This document shows, piece by piece, positions 17,264 through 25,633 of a stretch of 64,000 nucleotides of DNA. How positions within the stretch are numbered: position 1 is the first letter of the stretch; the number at the start of each line of letters is the position of its first letter. The translations under genes were made by a program, and so were the position numbers. Where the stretch lies: IMG/VR virus record IMGVR_UViG_3300044627_003100, one strand, 5' to 3'. This stretch comes from an uncultured virus (IMG/VR IMGVR_UViG_3300044627_003100) (taxonomy: Duplodnaviria > Heunggongvirae > Uroviricota > Caudoviricetes). The notes under the pieces were generated by a model that did not search any database, was not told the origin of the DNA, and was given only the letters and a program-made list of their open reading frames with translations.

Positions 17264-17286
17264 CCAACCCTATTGGGTTTTTTAAG

Positions 17287-17379
17287 CTGTAAGGGGACGA
17301 TTTGAACGTCCAAGCTTTTATTATTAGTAAAAGCACCACCGAGACAAGGTGGCGTGTCTACCAGTTTCACCACCTTACA
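17287..17379 (-). tRNA. Atypical class II (long variable arm) tRNA with GTC (Asp) anticodon
   Basis: TGTAAGG/CCTTACA acceptor, G73, D arm GTG-AAACTGGTAGA-CAC, CCACC-TTGTCTC-GGTGG, 7-bp variable stem, GGACG-TTCAAAT-CGTCC. Confidence 0.8.
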
Positions 17380-22203: not shown

Positions 22204-22634
22204 GGGTGGCTTTTCTTTAGGACGTTACTAAGGAGGATCGTGAGCACAAAGCCACGGTTCTCCTTTTACATCTACACGTTACATGATTTGTTTATTTATT
22301 CATTCACACATACATGTTTGCTATTACAGCAAGCGGAACTGTGATTCTGGTAGGTAGTATGATGGCTGCCATCAGATTAGCAGAAGAGCTACGTAGTGCG
22401 TAGGCTCTCAATCAGGTTGTAATCCGGATTTCCTGAAGTTCCCTAGAACAAAAAGCCGGAATTCCCTAATGATAATCAATGGTAATGTGTTGATTGTCAA
22501 GGTTTTATGTGTGGTTGTGTGAATGGTAGTAACACAACCACACTTTTTCTCATTTGTTTCTATTACCAATCAAGAAATTTTTGTCGCGGATAAGATGGCT
22601 ATATATTACATTCATTCACCAAAACCCTAATTAT

Positions 22635-23135: not shown

Positions 23136-23244
23136 CAGGGCTCTTTTCTTTTTTTACTAGCAGGTGTTAAGGCTAGTGCGTTGAAACCAGAACTTTCTGG
23201 GAGTAAGGTCACCAAAATGGCTGTATACAGCTAAACAAATTGTT

Positions 23245-23499
23245 ATGAATTTAGATTACTTACAGCCTTTAATGGCTCAATCAGTAGTTAAAGACAGTCC
23301 TCGTGGTACACGTAGGTATTTTCCTATCCAGGCTAAACAAAAGCGTGGTTGGAAATGGCTTTATGAAGCTTTCTATATCATATATGGAAAGCAAGCCAAA
23401 GACAATTTTGAAGTAGGATGTGCTATACTGACCCAATCTCTTGACAAGTATGTTGAGGAGTTTGATGATAAGTTATGGGTTCGTACTATAGCTGTCTAA
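23245..23499 (+). CDS. Hypothetical protein
   Basis: 84-aa ORF. Confidence 0.6.
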   Translation: MNLDYLQPLMAQSVVKDSPRGTRRYFPIQAKQKRGWKWLYEAFYIIYGKQAKDNFEVGCAILTQSLDKYVEEFDDKLWVRTIAV

Positions 23500-23510
23500 C
23501 TAAACGCATT

Positions 23511-23554
23511 ATGGTGAACTGGGCTCTTGAATGAGTCTGGTTCACCATTTCTTT
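23511..23554 (+). terminator. Terminator-like hairpin
   Basis: ATGGTGAACTGGGCTC/GAGTCTGGTTCACCAT plus TTCTTT. Confidence 0.65.
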
Positions 23555-23708
23555 CCAATTCACCAAAACCATTCTTTTAATATATTGTATGTGACCGTGT
23601 AGTGTCTTAATGCATCCGTGATGCATATTTGTAGAGAACAGGCAGTTTTGCTTGGCCAAATAGAGCTTTTATGTTCTTGTGATGCAAATATGTAGGGTGG
23701 ACATACAA

Positions 23709-23871
23709 TTCTAATGCGTCATTCCTGTTTCCCAAGGACAGGCAGTTGTAATAGTGAGATAAAGAGAATGCCTAAACAGCTACGTATTTTATATACGTGA
23801 ACAAAGTCTTGCAGCAAACAGATAACATTTTTGTGTTATTGGCTTGCTATTACAACTGAACGCAGAGGGAA
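23709..23871 (+). ncRNA. Twister-like self-cleaving ribozyme with long P5 extension
   Basis: TAA-TGCGT...CCTG-TTTCCCAAGGA-CAGG...ACGCA-GAGGG; 12-bp P5 CAGTTGTAATAG/CTATTACAACTG. Confidence 0.7.
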
Positions 23872-23894
23872 CAGGGCTCTTTTGTTATATAATT

Positions 23895-24033
23895 CCCGTA
23901 GATTGGCATCACTAATAGAGCGACAGTTCTATTAAGAAAACACTAAACAGTCGGGTTTAGGGGTTTTTACATTATATGTTCTCCTTCTGGAACATATGTA
24001 TGTGTGTAGGTTCGATTCCTGCTTATGGGACCA
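23895..24033 (+). ncRNA. Oversized tRNA-like RNA with encoded CCA
   Basis: CCCGTAG/TTATGGG acceptor plus A-CCA; T arm GTAGG-TTCGATT-CCTGC; three non-canonical internal hairpins. Confidence 0.65.
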
Positions 24034-24139
24034 AATATGTATGCTCTCTGGTAGAAATCCTATTACCATACCTCTAATTTTTAAGAGTCATTTTCTTGAA
24101 AGGGTAAGAAAGTTGGGAAGGTTGAGAGCATACATTATT

Positions 24140-24473
24140 TTCCAATGCACATTCTCACGTGGACACATTTCTTAGCGAAAGTATTAAACAGGAGTTAACT
24201 TGTACCTTGAGCCTTTAAGGTGATGAGAGGTTACTTCATAAGATGTGTGTGTAAGCAGACCTGATTAATCAACAGGTAACGGTGAAACATTAGCCTTAAA
24301 TGTGTAACCAACCTTGGTGGATACTACCTAGTAAAAAAGCCACTAATTAATCAGCTCTCAAGAGGTGAGAAAACAGATGTAATAGTTGATCATAATAATT
24401 TATCTGAACGCCTTACGAGGTAGATACTGAAAGATATAATTATTTACTATTACATCTGTTGTGCAAAGGGGAA
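24140..24473 (+). ncRNA. Divergent twister-scaffold RNA with about 200-nt insertion in P4
   Basis: CAA-TGCAC...GTGCA-AAGGG; P5 CAGATGTAATAG/CTATTACATCTG covaries with copy 1. Confidence 0.55.
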
Positions 24474-24529
24474 TTTATTTAATTATTTTCTTCAAACAAT
24501 ATACACAAACAATTAAAAATCAATCAATT

Positions 24530-24763
24530 ATGAAAATAGAATTCATTTACAACGATGATGAAAAGCGTGTAGGATATAAACTTATAGCTGAAACAGAGGA
24601 TGATTTCAGTAAACTAGGTGCCATTAGAGATATGATATTCTTTGGGATGGATGAAAAAGAAATTGTATACGATGGTAGGGAGATGACACTTTGTGGTGAA
24701 TCAATTCAAGTCCTTAGATGGTGCACTAGAGAACATCAAAAAAAAGATGATAGACGTATATAG
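24530..24763 (+). CDS. Hypothetical protein (start refined)
   Basis: MKIEFIYND...; A-rich upstream context. Confidence 0.6.
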   Translation: MKIEFIYNDDEKRVGYKLIAETEDDFSKLGAIRDMIFFGMDEKEIVYDGREMTLCGESIQVLRWCTREHQKKDDRRI

Positions 24764-24786
24764 CATTAACACATTTTTAACATTAT

Positions 24787-25213
24787 GGGGCCGTATTGGT
24801 TTTGACAGCAAGGGTAATGATAGTATCACATGCAAGGCTTGGGAGAGCCAAACAACTCCTAAACAATAATTGACAACCGTCAATCTGAAGGCGCAGCCAT
24901 TATCAATATGGCTTTCGCTAATGTACGTGTAGCAGTTGCTGCATAATACATCGCCTGACCAGCGTTCATAACGGTCACAAGCACACGTGTCTTCTCTGTT
25001 TGCACGTAATAGAACAGAGTGGTGGAAGGTTATACACCAGTATGACCCCAATACTAATCAGAATAAGTGAACTGTGTGGACTACAGCAGTTTAATGTCTG
25101 GGAGGCAGCTTAAACAGATTAAACTCTTGCTACTGTGTACAGTATAGCTAAGCATGTAAAAATGGTATTATGATTGACTTGTTTGGACAGGGGTTCGACT
25201 CCCCTCGGCTCCA
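24787..25213 (+). ncRNA. ssrA: tmRNA
   Basis: 5' GGGGCCGTATTGGTTTTGAC; 3' GGACAGGGGTTCGACTCCCCTCGGCTCCA with G3-U70; tag frame 24872-24946 DNRQSEGAAIINMAFANVRVAVAA*. Confidence 0.93.
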
Positions 25214-25252
25214 CAGTATTTACTAATTAATAACAATAAAAACACACAAACC

Positions 25253-25633
25253 ATGAAAGATTTATCAATTTTTAAAGACGTTTCAGTTACACCATGTAAT
25301 GCAGAATTATTTGAGTTTTTAGCTAATTATGCTAGAAGTAAAGATGTTCCTGTATATGCAGAAACAGGTAGAGATTCATATAATAAGGGTTTTATTCATC
25401 TTTGGTTTAATGATGGTATGTTTATTGGAGCTAGCTCACTTTATGTTAACAATATAAGTGTAGAAAAATTTATAGCACTTTGTGATGAATGGGCTAATAA
25501 TGATGATGTAAAACTAAATTCTAATTACACTGCTAAAATAGATAGAGTGAATAAAATAGTGCACGTAGGATGTCAAATGTTCACTTTTGAGAGTATTTCC
25601 AATCTACATAGAGCAATTTGCAATAAAGTTTAA
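25253..25633 (+). CDS. Hypothetical protein
   Basis: 126 aa; C-terminal VHVGCQMFTFE motif. Confidence 0.65.
   Translation: MKDLSIFKDVSVTPCNAELFEFLANYARSKDVPVYAETGRDSYNKGFIHLWFNDGMFIGASSLYVNNISVEKFIALCDEWANNDDVKLNSNYTAKIDRVNKIVHVGCQMFTFESISNLHRAICNKV

Follow-up and report, generated by a model that had tools for sequence, protein, structure and literature searches.

Organization of the locus

The window, that is the whole stretch of 64,000 nucleotides that was analysed, derives from an uncultured virus of the Caudoviricetes (IMG/VR IMGVR_UViG_3300044627_003100). Between 23.5 and 24.5 kb it holds a gap of approximately 1 kb without genes, in which a string of small folded RNAs lies on the plus strand in the order module M, short-form twister-like unit 1, a tRNA-like RNA, an orphan hairpin domain and long-form unit 2. 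These RNAs form an array of independent modules that heads the rightward gene arm of the phage; the features of the gap and its surroundings are as follows:

23511..23548, plus strand: hairpin of 16 pairs resembling a terminator, closing off the upstream ORF 23245-23499; T-rich tail, with TTCTTTCC after the last pair
23559..23586, plus strand: promoter-like TTCACC-16 nt-TATATT, 9 of 12 matches; a weak candidate for the start of the RNA array
23584..23711, plus strand: module M, a small structured RNA that is conserved, with closing stem UUGUAUGU/ACAUACAA; terminal hairpin expanded in this phage
23712..23869, plus strand: unit 1, a short-form (type A) twister-like element with twister layout and family covariation
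23895..24033, plus strand: tRNA-like RNA with a 7-bp acceptor stem CCCGUAG/UUAUGGG, T arm GUAGG-UUCGAUU-CCUGC and 3' ACCA
24037..24135, plus strand: second upstream domain, with a perfect 12 bp stem ATGTATGCTCTC/GAGAGCATACAT at 24037-24048/24124-24135
24143..24471, plus strand: unit 2, a divergent long-form (type B) twister-like element (alignments A2 and A5)
24530..24763, plus strand: small ORF of 77 aa belonging to no family, directly 3' of the array
24787..25216, plus strand: phage-encoded tmRNA (RF00023, 88.9 bits)

The terminator-like hairpin (MFE -25.4 kcal/mol, z -6.1) shares 96% identity with that of a relative, L003, in which the tRNA-like RNA is preceded by the same stretch as the promoter-like sequence; a promoter scan of positions 23200-25400 gave no excess of sites over chance (10 against 8.9 expected). 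The earlier note had described tandem bipartite units; in one relative the modules are shuffled independently and not duplicated as a fixed pair. A large RNA of the GOLLD or ROOL type was also considered and dropped, as Rfam gave no match and the region splits into separately conserved modules.

Against the phage records of GenBank, blastn with the 1-kb region returned no match. At 100% identity across the region, the nearest record (G001) contributes no covariation, and a search by neighbouring proteins returned two loci, one being this same record. Matches were found in five public RNA runs (each with 4% of words), and these are assembled contigs of relatives, in which molecule ends do not show; they are confined to P5 of unit 2 and the tmRNA 3' end and are uninformative on expression or cleavage of this locus. 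In the X4/X5 contig a short-form element is joined directly to a unit-2-like start, whilst the X1 and X2 contigs (136 and 131 nt, from two studies) hold a relative whose P4 loop is of the plain UUCG type, both beginning 9 nt 5' of that relative's UAAUGCAC.

Module M, the orphan domain and the tRNA-like RNA

Module M, in which a TGTATG/CATACA stem closes 23584-23709, has a fold z of -2.3 and shows covariation in the sequences collected by blastn (alignment A6), with GAC/GUC exchanged for GGC/GCC and with CAUCC/GGRUG. It is present in 13 IMG/VR contigs and in 11 of these is tied to a twister-like element, being located upstream in seven cases and inside P5 in four. The second upstream domain also folds (z -3.5) and found no blastn match among the loci, and a pattern scan returned only the window's own record and five coding-looking matches, which we take as chance. 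When the two upstream domains were compared with each other, blastn detected nothing above 5-mers. Of the bipartite layout of domain plus twister described in the earlier note, the arrangement of unit 1 recurs in other phages, but on their sequences no homology links the two upstream domains, and the second is without relatives.

The tRNA-like RNA resembles a tRNA in its acceptor stem, its T arm (loop UUCGAUU) and its 3' ACCA; in contrast to the tRNA cloverleaf it has neither a D nor an anticodon arm, and three hairpins stand in their place (fold z -4.15). Neither ARAGORN nor the Rfam tRNA (RF00005) and tmRNA models called it at 23895-24033. Homologs are found in L118 (83% over 140 nt) and in L003 and L137 (83% over 106 nt); by eye, acceptor pair 4 varies between G-U and A-U among the three sequences and pair 5 changes on both sides in L118, from U-A to C-G. 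An acceptor stem, T arm and 3' ACCA are elements of RNase P and RNase Z substrates, and the RNA described here may be processed likewise.

Structure of the twister-like units

Reading of the sequence and a repeat finder located both units and all of the stems named in the earlier note. The parts of unit 1 are:

23715-19/23860-64, plus strand: P2, TGCGT/ACGCA, paired 5/5
23724-28/23738-42, plus strand: P4, CCUGU/ACAGG, capped with L4 UUCCCAAGG at 23729-37
23743-54/23847-58, plus strand: P5, CAGTTGTAATAG/CTATTACAACTG, a perfect 12 bp helix with a distal part of 92 nt
23865-69, plus strand: GAGGG, the first G being G23865
C23731-33 with G23867-69, plus strand: CCC:GGG pseudoknot

A cleavage-site triplet N-A-A, here U23712-A-A, lies directly 5' of P2, so that the twister core ascribed to copy 1 is indeed present, with UAA at 23712-14, the loop UUCCCAAGG and GAGGG. 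The earlier remark that P1 is weak in copy 1 is borne out: unit 1 has no P1, the flanks AAUUC and AACAG being unpaired, and the closing stem of module M stops 2 nt before U23712. Against the family model R1 unit 1 scores 113 bits, a value to be read in the knowledge that unit 1 is one of the training rows of R1, and its homolog in L003 scores 101 bits. We read unit 1 as a twister variant and not as a catalogued member. Self-cleavage would be expected between U23712 and A23713, the same site that had been predicted earlier and that the twister register sets.

Unit 2 is built from the following parts:

24146-50/24461-65, plus strand: P2, TGCAC/GTGCA, paired 5/5, behind the start C24143-AA
24154-58/24365-69, plus strand: P4
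24159-24354, plus strand: insert of about 196 nt within L4, with CUGAUUAAU/AUUAAUCAG
24355-64, plus strand: L4 core CUCUCAAGAG, behind the insert
24374-85/24447-58, plus strand: P5, CAGATGTAATAG/CTATTACATCTG
24466-71, plus strand: AAGGGG

Only P5 of unit 2 matches the family model R1 (32.6 bits). The position of the general base is occupied by A24466 and not by G, and the U-CCCAAG loop is present in part, as the core CUCUCAAGAG. The insert of about 200 nt that the long form carries in L4 is itself conserved and covarying, and across 15 long-form sequences pairing stands at 94.7%, with double changes at 18 pairs.

A large phage-borne RNA family

Units 1 and 2 are members of one large phage-borne RNA family with twister architecture. 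A pattern describing only the 3' side, derived from both copies, occurs in at least 94 IMG/VR stretches, and in 72 of 81 unique matches a CCCAAG-type hairpin, which was no part of the pattern, is found directly 5' of P5. Conversely, a pattern describing only the 5' side occurs in at least 120 stretches, and the complementary P2 strand followed by GAGGG, again absent from the pattern, was recovered in 102 of the 113 unique matches listed. Recurrence of the motif is far beyond chance.

The family alignment comprises 88 elements retrieved with the 5'-only pattern, taken from the matches listed. Bases pair in 92.1% of its cells as opposed to 80.8% in shuffles (0 of 500 reaching this value), G-U pairs being common, and double changes are found in all five pairs of P4, 10 of 12 in P5 and two of five in P2. 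P2 pairs in 99.5% of cells; its pair 4 changes from AU to GC in 8/88 and its pair 5 from CG to UA in 11/88, and pair 4 of P5 changes from UA to AU in 8/88. The compensatory changes which the earlier note had seen between the two copies (TGCGT/ACGCA against TGCAC/GTGCA, and likewise in P5) sit at positions that covary throughout these 88 elements.

Unpaired positions are still more constant. In the cleavage triplet the first base is U in 86/88 (C in two) and both A+1 and A+2 are found in 88/88; the first G of GAGGG is kept in 85 rows (two A, one gap) and the A that follows in 87 (one gap), and the U-CCCAAG of the P4 loop is invariant. The CCC:GGG pseudoknot is complementary in 99.6% of cells, with one copy having CAC and a matching U, although its covariation support is thin as these positions are mostly invariant. 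When placed in the exact twister register, P1 pairs in 63.7% of cells compared with 48.9 +/- 2.0% after shuffling (0 of 500), and in slid registers pairing lies between 38 and 59%.

The canonical GC/GC 2-bp pseudoknot of twister (T2, or PK1 of McKinley) is absent. C34-G53 pairs in 87/88, and a second pair would need either an A-G mismatch or a CC/GG pairing that sacrifices the fifth pair of P2; covariation of column pair 33-330 favours the fifth P2 pair over CC/GG. Among members defined by the 3' motif, seven of 79 informative ones are missing the CCCAAG-type loop, and at least three of those seven (L018, L046 and L064) keep GAGGG and have a short plain P4 loop, which makes the pseudoknot impossible. 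For what would be an accessory helix only, P5 is unusually constant in sequence over its first 8 bp.

With regard to genomic context, 55 of 56 elements have an ATG-initiated ORF of at least 50 aa on the same strand within 600 nt downstream (22 within 60 nt), compared with 19 of 56 in the antisense direction, and elements are sometimes arranged in tandem or back to back. Rfam searches of 20 loci identified tRNAs, a hatchet at 81 bits and, below threshold, a twister-P1 at 52 bits and a hammerhead that abuts a family element. A canonical twister-P1 match in L040 carries the CAC/GUG variant of the pseudoknot that one family copy also shows. Only seven of 48 pattern matches in bacterial genomes are real by the family model. 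All seven are in metagenome bins (two of Sediminibacterium and one each of Bacteroidia, Ca. Saccharibacteria, Phycisphaerales, Alphaproteobacteria and an unclassified bin), none being an isolate genome, and they are too few for a host to be named.

Comparison with twister ribozymes

The earlier note had offered a match to an Rfam twister covariance model as its own test of the twister reading, and neither unit gave one: no model of the twister clan matched at gathering score, or at E<=10 on positions 23400-24600. RF03160 was likewise without a match at E<=10 over the whole of a near-identical 110-kb sister record, and the twister models run at E<=1 over 20 and 6 loci gave none overlapping family members.

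The likeness to twister type P1 (RF03160, clan CL00120; PMC6154101, PMC11662667) is one of order and register. Both run P1 (weak or absent in the family), UAA, P2, P4 with U-CCCAAG, the 3' strand of P2, GAGGG and the 3' strand of P1, and both have the CCC:GGG pseudoknot; set beside the Rfam twister-P1 consensus, the core reads as twister-like and its helices covary. On the 3' side of L2, P5 takes the position that an accessory P5 has in twisters, and unit 1 has a hairpin directly upstream as do twisters with an accessory P0. We take G45 of the rice ribozyme to be the first G of GAGGG, from an alignment of the rice sequence to the Rfam consensus. This G45 is the general base of twister (PMC6154101).

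The differences are several. The P2 of twister has 4 bp and that of the family 5 bp (UGCAC/GUGCA); where twister has the junction GC(C), from which the 2-bp pseudoknot forms, the family has an invariant C-A and two to four variable bases, and in place of UAAA it has CAG-P5-CUG-A. Compared with twister-P1, L4 (UUCCCAAGG) is one base shorter, P3 is missing and P1 is weak. Whereas only 1% of twisters carry a P5 (PMC6154101), in the family it is always present, is long (about 40-300 nt) and has its first 8 bp conserved in sequence. Unlike catalogued twisters, the long form has a conserved and structured insert of some 200 nt in L4.

Many of these departures are within the range that twister accepts. 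In McKinley et al. 2024 (PMC11662667) P1 is dispensable, L2 is highly variable, any base is accepted at -1 and all tested twisters bearing a P5 cleaved above 0.8; the 2-bp PK1 is the element most sensitive to imperfection, and an upstream hairpin of the P0 type lowered cleavage from 0.85 to 0.40. A permuted, non-circular twister was considered and dropped, the order being that of an ordinary type P1; PMC10085705 reports having found no such permutations. Literature searches turned up no description of the variant, though environmental sequences in the supplements to Roth et al. 2014 and to McKinley et al. 2024 could include members. Taken together, the twister reading of the earlier note is partly supported.

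Discussion

The best explanation of the locus, to which we give a probability of about 60%, is a module array in which unit 1 is an active twister-class ribozyme and unit 2 a weakened or dead copy. Unit 1 would cut between U23712 and A23713, with A23713 acting as the general acid and G23865 as the general base, thereby freeing module M as an RNA of ~120 nt with a 2',3'-cyclic phosphate end. The body of the ribozyme would stay on the downstream RNA as a structured 5'-OH end, and on this RNA, RNase P and RNase Z would probably make further cuts at the tRNA-like element.

Self-cleaving ribozymes are known to cluster near phage genes and near each other (PMC10085705, introduction), and that literature assigns such clusters no function. 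Like those clusters, the elements described here are intergenic in phages, co-oriented with genes and sometimes near hatchet, twister-P1 or hammerhead motifs; in this phage the units flank defined RNA modules, module M and a tRNA-like RNA, and not genes alone. It is possible, and put forward tentatively, that the twister-like element is a modular cassette with two cargo slots, the first directly 5' of the cut and the second at the P5 tip, and that phages exchange small structured RNAs through these slots, the scaffold making or displaying defined small RNAs from early transcripts and the long form representing a second, possibly regulated or protein-dependent class. Module M occupies both slots, 5' of the predicted cut and inside P5.

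A less probable alternative to an active unit 1 is that the family descends from twister and no longer cleaves, its rigid, pseudoknotted fold serving mRNA leaders as a scaffold. The 2-bp pseudoknot, sensitive in twister, is altered, some members keep a short and plain P4 loop (including those in the X1 and X2 RNA contigs), the base of P5 is conserved in sequence beyond what pairing alone would call for, the P5 inserts are very diverse with module M among them, and the Rfam models are blind to the element. However, A+1, A+2 and the G that opens GAGGG, unpaired bases which in twister matter for catalysis only, vary little or not at all, P1 covaries in the register bracketing the cleavage site, bona fide self-cleaving ribozymes lie nearby, and known twisters accept many such imperfections (PMC11662667). 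A scaffold of this type might act as a protective structured 5' or intercistronic block, or as a frame that presents to a protein either module M or the hypervariable insert of P5.

Returning to the module array with an active unit 1, the fate of its second copy has to be considered. The claim that there are two twister-like copies stands in so far as both belong to one family, but copy 2 departs at the general-base G and at several other conserved positions. Judged from its sequence and the alignment against the family column frequencies (88 rows), unit 2 has at least six departures at positions that are 97-100% conserved: C34 is lost, a C is changed to U inside CCC, L4 has an additional A, the linker is UU where the family has A, an A stands at the general-base position, and the insert helix GYRG/CYRC is unformed. 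Cleavage is reported to drop as imperfections of PK1 and PK2 accumulate (PMC11662667), and unit 2 is probably a weakened or inactive copy. That it is still active despite these deviations, with both units processing the transcript, appears unlikely, although in McKinley et al. (PMC11662667) a change of the general base from G to A reduced mean cleavage only from 0.76 to 0.54 and any base at -1 as well as wobbles in the pseudoknots were tolerated, and the long-form architecture is itself conserved and covarying.

That the inverted repeats act as DNA, i.e., as a recombination site, homing site or operator with an incidental RNA fold, is highly improbable. In its favour are the strong sequence conservation of the 12-bp arms, the shuffling of modules between relatives and the score that the antisense strand of P5, its arms being near-palindromic, also reaches with the model. 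Against it, pairing is maintained via G-U pairs, which are non-functional on the complementary strand, covariation extends to the pseudoknot and to P2 and P4, both long-range, and the elements are co-oriented with genes in 55/56 against 19/56.

If the elements do not cleave, a ribozyme fold has been re-used as a structural scaffold. If they do, they would be among the most abundant natural twister subclasses, with hundreds of copies in freshwater phage contigs, and one that neither Rfam nor published descriptors include; the twister fold would then tolerate changes to the 2-bp pseudoknot, a long P5 that is obligatory and a structured 200-nt insert in L4. Cleavage would also give phage ribozymes a concrete job, that of setting the ends of small structured RNAs, such as module M and the tRNA-like RNA, and of early mRNAs.

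Genomic setting

The window comes from an uncultured tailed phage. It encodes the terminase, the portal and major head proteins at 8.9-17.3 kb on the minus strand; on the plus strand, genes for a helicase, for AAA ATPases and for an HNH endonuclease follow from about 26 kb. It also carries three tRNAs and one tmRNA. The RNA array occupies roughly 1 kb devoid of ORFs (23500-24529) near the beginning of the rightward gene arm, bordered upstream by an ORF at 23245-23499 and downstream by a 77-codon ORF starting at 24530. A 100% identical copy of the region is present in a 109.8-kb IMG/VR record (G001), and GenBank phage records gave no match to it. The tmRNA follows the array on the same strand, with the 77-codon ORF between them.

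RNA features of the array and its flank
23584-23711: first upstream domain (M)
23712-23869 (+): unit 1, short-form twister-like element
23895-24033: tRNA-like RNA
24037-24135: second upstream domain
24143-24471 (+): unit 2, long-form twister-like element
24787-25216 (+): phage-encoded tmRNA (RF00023, 88.9 bits; ARAGORN tag VNLKAQPLSIWLSLMYV*)

In contigs from RNA libraries (four runs) the tmRNA is covered only over its last 35-45 nt, and sequencing-adaptor letters follow at 25216 or 25204. A 94-nt tRNA-Asp called by ARAGORN at 17286-17379 (-) is unlisted by the Rfam tRNA model at gathering score, and may bear an insert or be a false call. Another ORF-free stretch of about 420 nt (22204-22625, +), nearly identical in the relative L003, has, at about 22509-22549, a terminal hairpin GTGTGGTTGTGTG...CACAACCACAC with a T-run; the probable start codon of the neighbouring ORF is ATG 22626 rather than TTG 22554.

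A family of twister-like elements

Every stem listed in the earlier note was found, position for position. A pattern taken from the 3' side common to both window copies (CTATTACANCTG, 1-2 nt, RYGCARAGGG) recovered 94 stretches from IMG/VR, 81 of them unique, and in 72 of these 81 a CCCAAG-type hairpin, which lay outside what the pattern specified, stands directly 5' of the long stem's 5' arm; seven others have a different loop, one is a GC-rich chance match and one is truncated where its contig stops. The converse pattern, from the 5' side only, found at least 120 stretches. Among the matches listed there were 113 unique 5' halves, 107 of which are followed within 330 nt by a sequence exactly complementary to their own P2 strand, and behind this complement stands GAGGG in 102 cases, AAGGG in two and GAAGG in one, two being spurious. 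The sequence family is real and abundant. We found no description of the variant in the literature; the supplements of the original twister work and of McKinley et al. may hold environmental members.

The consensus is (weak P1)-UAA-UGCAC-CA-N2-4-[5-bp P4]-UUCCCAAGG-[P4']-CAG..P5..CUG-A-GUGCA-GAGGG-(weak P1'). An alignment of 37 short-form elements including unit 1 (A1) was used to build a model (R1), and all family pair counts were taken from a second alignment (A4) of 88 full-length matches (E<=1e-16), drawn from 82 loci that the 5' pattern had recovered independently.

Pairing and covariation in the short form (A4) and long form (A5, 15 sequences with a common core)
P2, short form: 99.5% of cells paired; both-side changes in 2/5 pairs
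P4, short form: 99.5% of cells paired; both-side changes in 5/5 pairs
P5, short form: 95.5% of cells paired; both-side changes in 10/12 pairs
Whole structure, short form: 92.1% of cells paired; both-side changes in 23/31 pairs
Long-range P4, long form: 5/5 covarying pairs
GYRG/CYRC helix, long form: 2/4 covarying pairs
CUGAUUAAU helix, long form: 4/8 covarying pairs
Inner helix, long form: 4/5 covarying pairs

For the whole short-form structure, shuffles gave 80.8% (0/500) and slid registers 30-54%. The two compensatory changes between copies that had been taken as support for real structure fall exactly on positions which covary across the family. The CCC of the loop is complementary to the GGG of GAGGG in 99.6% of cells; in one copy the loop reads CAC and its downstream partner has the U to match, and the identical CAC/GUG variant occurs in the canonical twister-P1 match of locus L040.

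A minimal member, L119 305-411 (+; 77.6 bits to R1), has P5 shrunk to CAG-UAUUACAA-CUG, so the long P5 is dispensable. Some members (L018, L046, L064 and contigs from the public RNA runs X1/X2) carry a plain short P4 loop of AAAU, AAUC, GUAA or UUCG type in place of UUCCCAAGG; they retain P2, P5 and GAGGG, and the twister pseudoknot is impossible in them.

Comparison with twister

The Rfam twister-P1 consensus is ccuu-UAA-cgCc-GC-[P3]-cCG-GUCCCAAGCC-CGg-gUAAA-gGcg-GAGGG-aagg; the family agrees with it in the order of elements, in all three conserved single-stranded blocks and in the partner of the pseudoknot. P1 was scored in twister's register, that is, 5 bp ending beside the U before AA and beginning directly after GAGGG; 63.7% of cells were paired, compared with 48.9 +/- 2.0% in shuffles (0/500) and 38-59% in slid registers, with a covariation score of 0.452 vs 0.239. 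Positions whose bases serve chemistry rather than pairing in twister hardly vary in A4: A+1 and A+2 are each present in 88/88 rows, the first G of GAGGG in 85/88 (two A, one gap) and the following A in 87/88 (one gap). In twister the general acid is the A 3' of the scissile bond and the general base a conserved G (G45 in rice), P1 is reported as dispensable, and accessory helices occur at 21% (P0), 78% (P3) and 1% (P5) (PMC6154101). In the assays of McKinley et al. (2024, PMC11662667), P1 imperfections were without effect on cleavage, L2 was highly variable, and every P5-bearing twister cleaved above 0.8.

The family differs, however, in the 2-bp pseudoknot, where twister's GC is replaced by an invariant C-A. 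The loop's last G is complementary to this C (C34) in 87/88 elements. A second pair could form only as an A-G mismatch or in competition with the fifth pair of P2, itself a covarying pair (CG 76, UA 11, UG 1); this pseudoknot is the twister element most sensitive to imperfection (PMC11662667). The match to Rfam twister models that the earlier note had looked to did not appear: the twister-clan models matched neither window unit, nor the family relatives in 26 loci. Because of this and the altered pseudoknot we do not file the family as a catalogued twister; on balance we read it as a variant of the twister class, one that probably cleaves. We would put the probability that unit 1 cleaves at roughly 0.6, and hold common ancestry of the two folds to be much more probable than that.

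The long form and unit 2

In all 15 sequences of A5 the long-form insert follows P4's 5' strand and precedes the CCCAAG block, and its conserved part reads GURGAUAUAAAGACUUCUUAG ... CUAAGAUGUGAAAC-YRC-CUGAUUAAU ... UUAAUCAG-CUCCCAAGG; 94.7% of cells are paired, with both-side changes in 18 pairs. Unit 2 retains this layout and deviates at several positions which are 97-100% conserved elsewhere. It lacks the C after P2, its loop is CUCUCAAGAG (a C-to-U change plus an extra A), its linker has UU where the family has A, the GYRG/CYRC helix is unformed, and AAGGGG in place of GAGGG puts an A at the general-base position, a change reported to lower mean cleavage only from 0.76 to 0.54 (PMC11662667). 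The C in place of U at -1 is harmless, any base being tolerated there in twister (PMC11662667). As it departs at several near-invariant positions, unit 2 is expected to be weakened or inactive.

Upstream domains and module shuffling

M (23584-23711) is a conserved module: its two ends share 84-95% identity with five other loci (blastn), and compensatory changes (alignment A6) link GAC/GUC with GGC/GCC, and CAUCC/GGGUG with CAUCC/GGAUG and UAUCC/GGAUA. An expanded terminal hairpin sets the window's copy apart. Scanning with its invariant core gave 13 contigs, the window's own record included, and R1 placed M directly upstream of a twister-like element in four, upstream at a distance of about 137 nt in three (these have identical scores and may be redundant) and inside P5 in four; it overlaps a weak R1 match in one, and one has no R1 match. 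This tight linkage supports the proposal that the upstream RNA belongs with the ribozyme as one unit. Of 137 unique short-form elements, 26% contain an unbroken helix of 10 bp or more that ends no further than 8 nt from the cut-site base; the share is 7% when sequences are shuffled and 9.5% when they are reversed. Such helices resemble the accessory P0 hairpin of twister. The second domain (24037-24135) is stable (fold z -3.5), with no similarity to M by blastn and no relatives in a pattern scan.

The tRNA-like RNA (fold z -4.15) has a 3' ACCA and an acceptor stem of 7 bp; its T arm carries the loop UUCGAUU, and the D and anticodon arms give way to three hairpins. Neither ARAGORN nor Rfam calls it as a tRNA. 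It has homologs in L118 and L003; acceptor pair 4 varies between G-U and A-U (read by eye in the window and homologs), and pair 5 is changed on both sides in L118 (U-A to C-G).

In L003, a relative in which the protein of a neighbouring gene is 89% identical, the order is ORF84 homolog, terminator, the same promoter-like stretch, tRNA-like RNA, 8 nt, a unit-1 homolog (101 bits) and ORF193 homolog; the locus lacks M, the second domain and unit 2. L118 has a twister-like element, about 80 nt, the tRNA-like RNA and a gene leader resembling window 24490-24520. As these relatives combine the modules differently, the 'tandem bipartite' layout first described does not hold as a duplicated two-part gene, and reads instead as one arrangement of independent cassettes. 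A motif, ATTCA(C/T)CAAAAC, sits exactly at the module joins that differ between window (22612-22624, 23557-23569) and L003 (3740-3752, 4063-4075), and may mark a recombination junction or else be a piece of leader or promoter common to both.

RNA-level context and proposed mechanism

Within 600 nt downstream of 55/56 unique elements (1.5-kb flanks) lies an ATG ORF of 50 codons or more on the same strand, for 22 of these 55 within 60 nt, compared with only 19/56 on the antisense side, and there is evidence that the family acts as RNA within transcripts. Two full same-strand copies occur in at least 6/82 short loci; in L211 and L135 the copies are back to back, the next UAAUGCAC lying 2-4 nt past the previous GAGGG. 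Rfam models found a hatchet, a sub-threshold twister-P1 (52.1 bits, cut-off 67.2), a sub-threshold hammerhead and tRNAs in 20 loci, and ARAGORN called tRNAs in 7/60. The full hatchet ribozyme (L009 354-516, +; RF02678, 81.1 bits, cut-off 51) lies about 900 nt upstream of the twister-like element on the same strand. The hammerhead-like core CUGAUGAG...CGAAAC (L030 1503-1588, +; RAGATH-1-hammerhead 35.5 bits, cut-off 56.3) begins a few bases from the GAGGG of its twister-like element.

The modules, their folds and their linkage are the observed basis of the mechanism that we propose. Transcription might begin near 23590, as a promoter-like site hints, and unit 1 would then cleave itself at U23712/A23713, freeing M with a cyclic-phosphate end and giving the downstream RNA a structured 5'-OH end. 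The tRNA-like element could be trimmed in the manner of RNase P/Z, unit 2 would contribute reduced activity or none, and transcription would continue into the small ORF and might reach the tmRNA.
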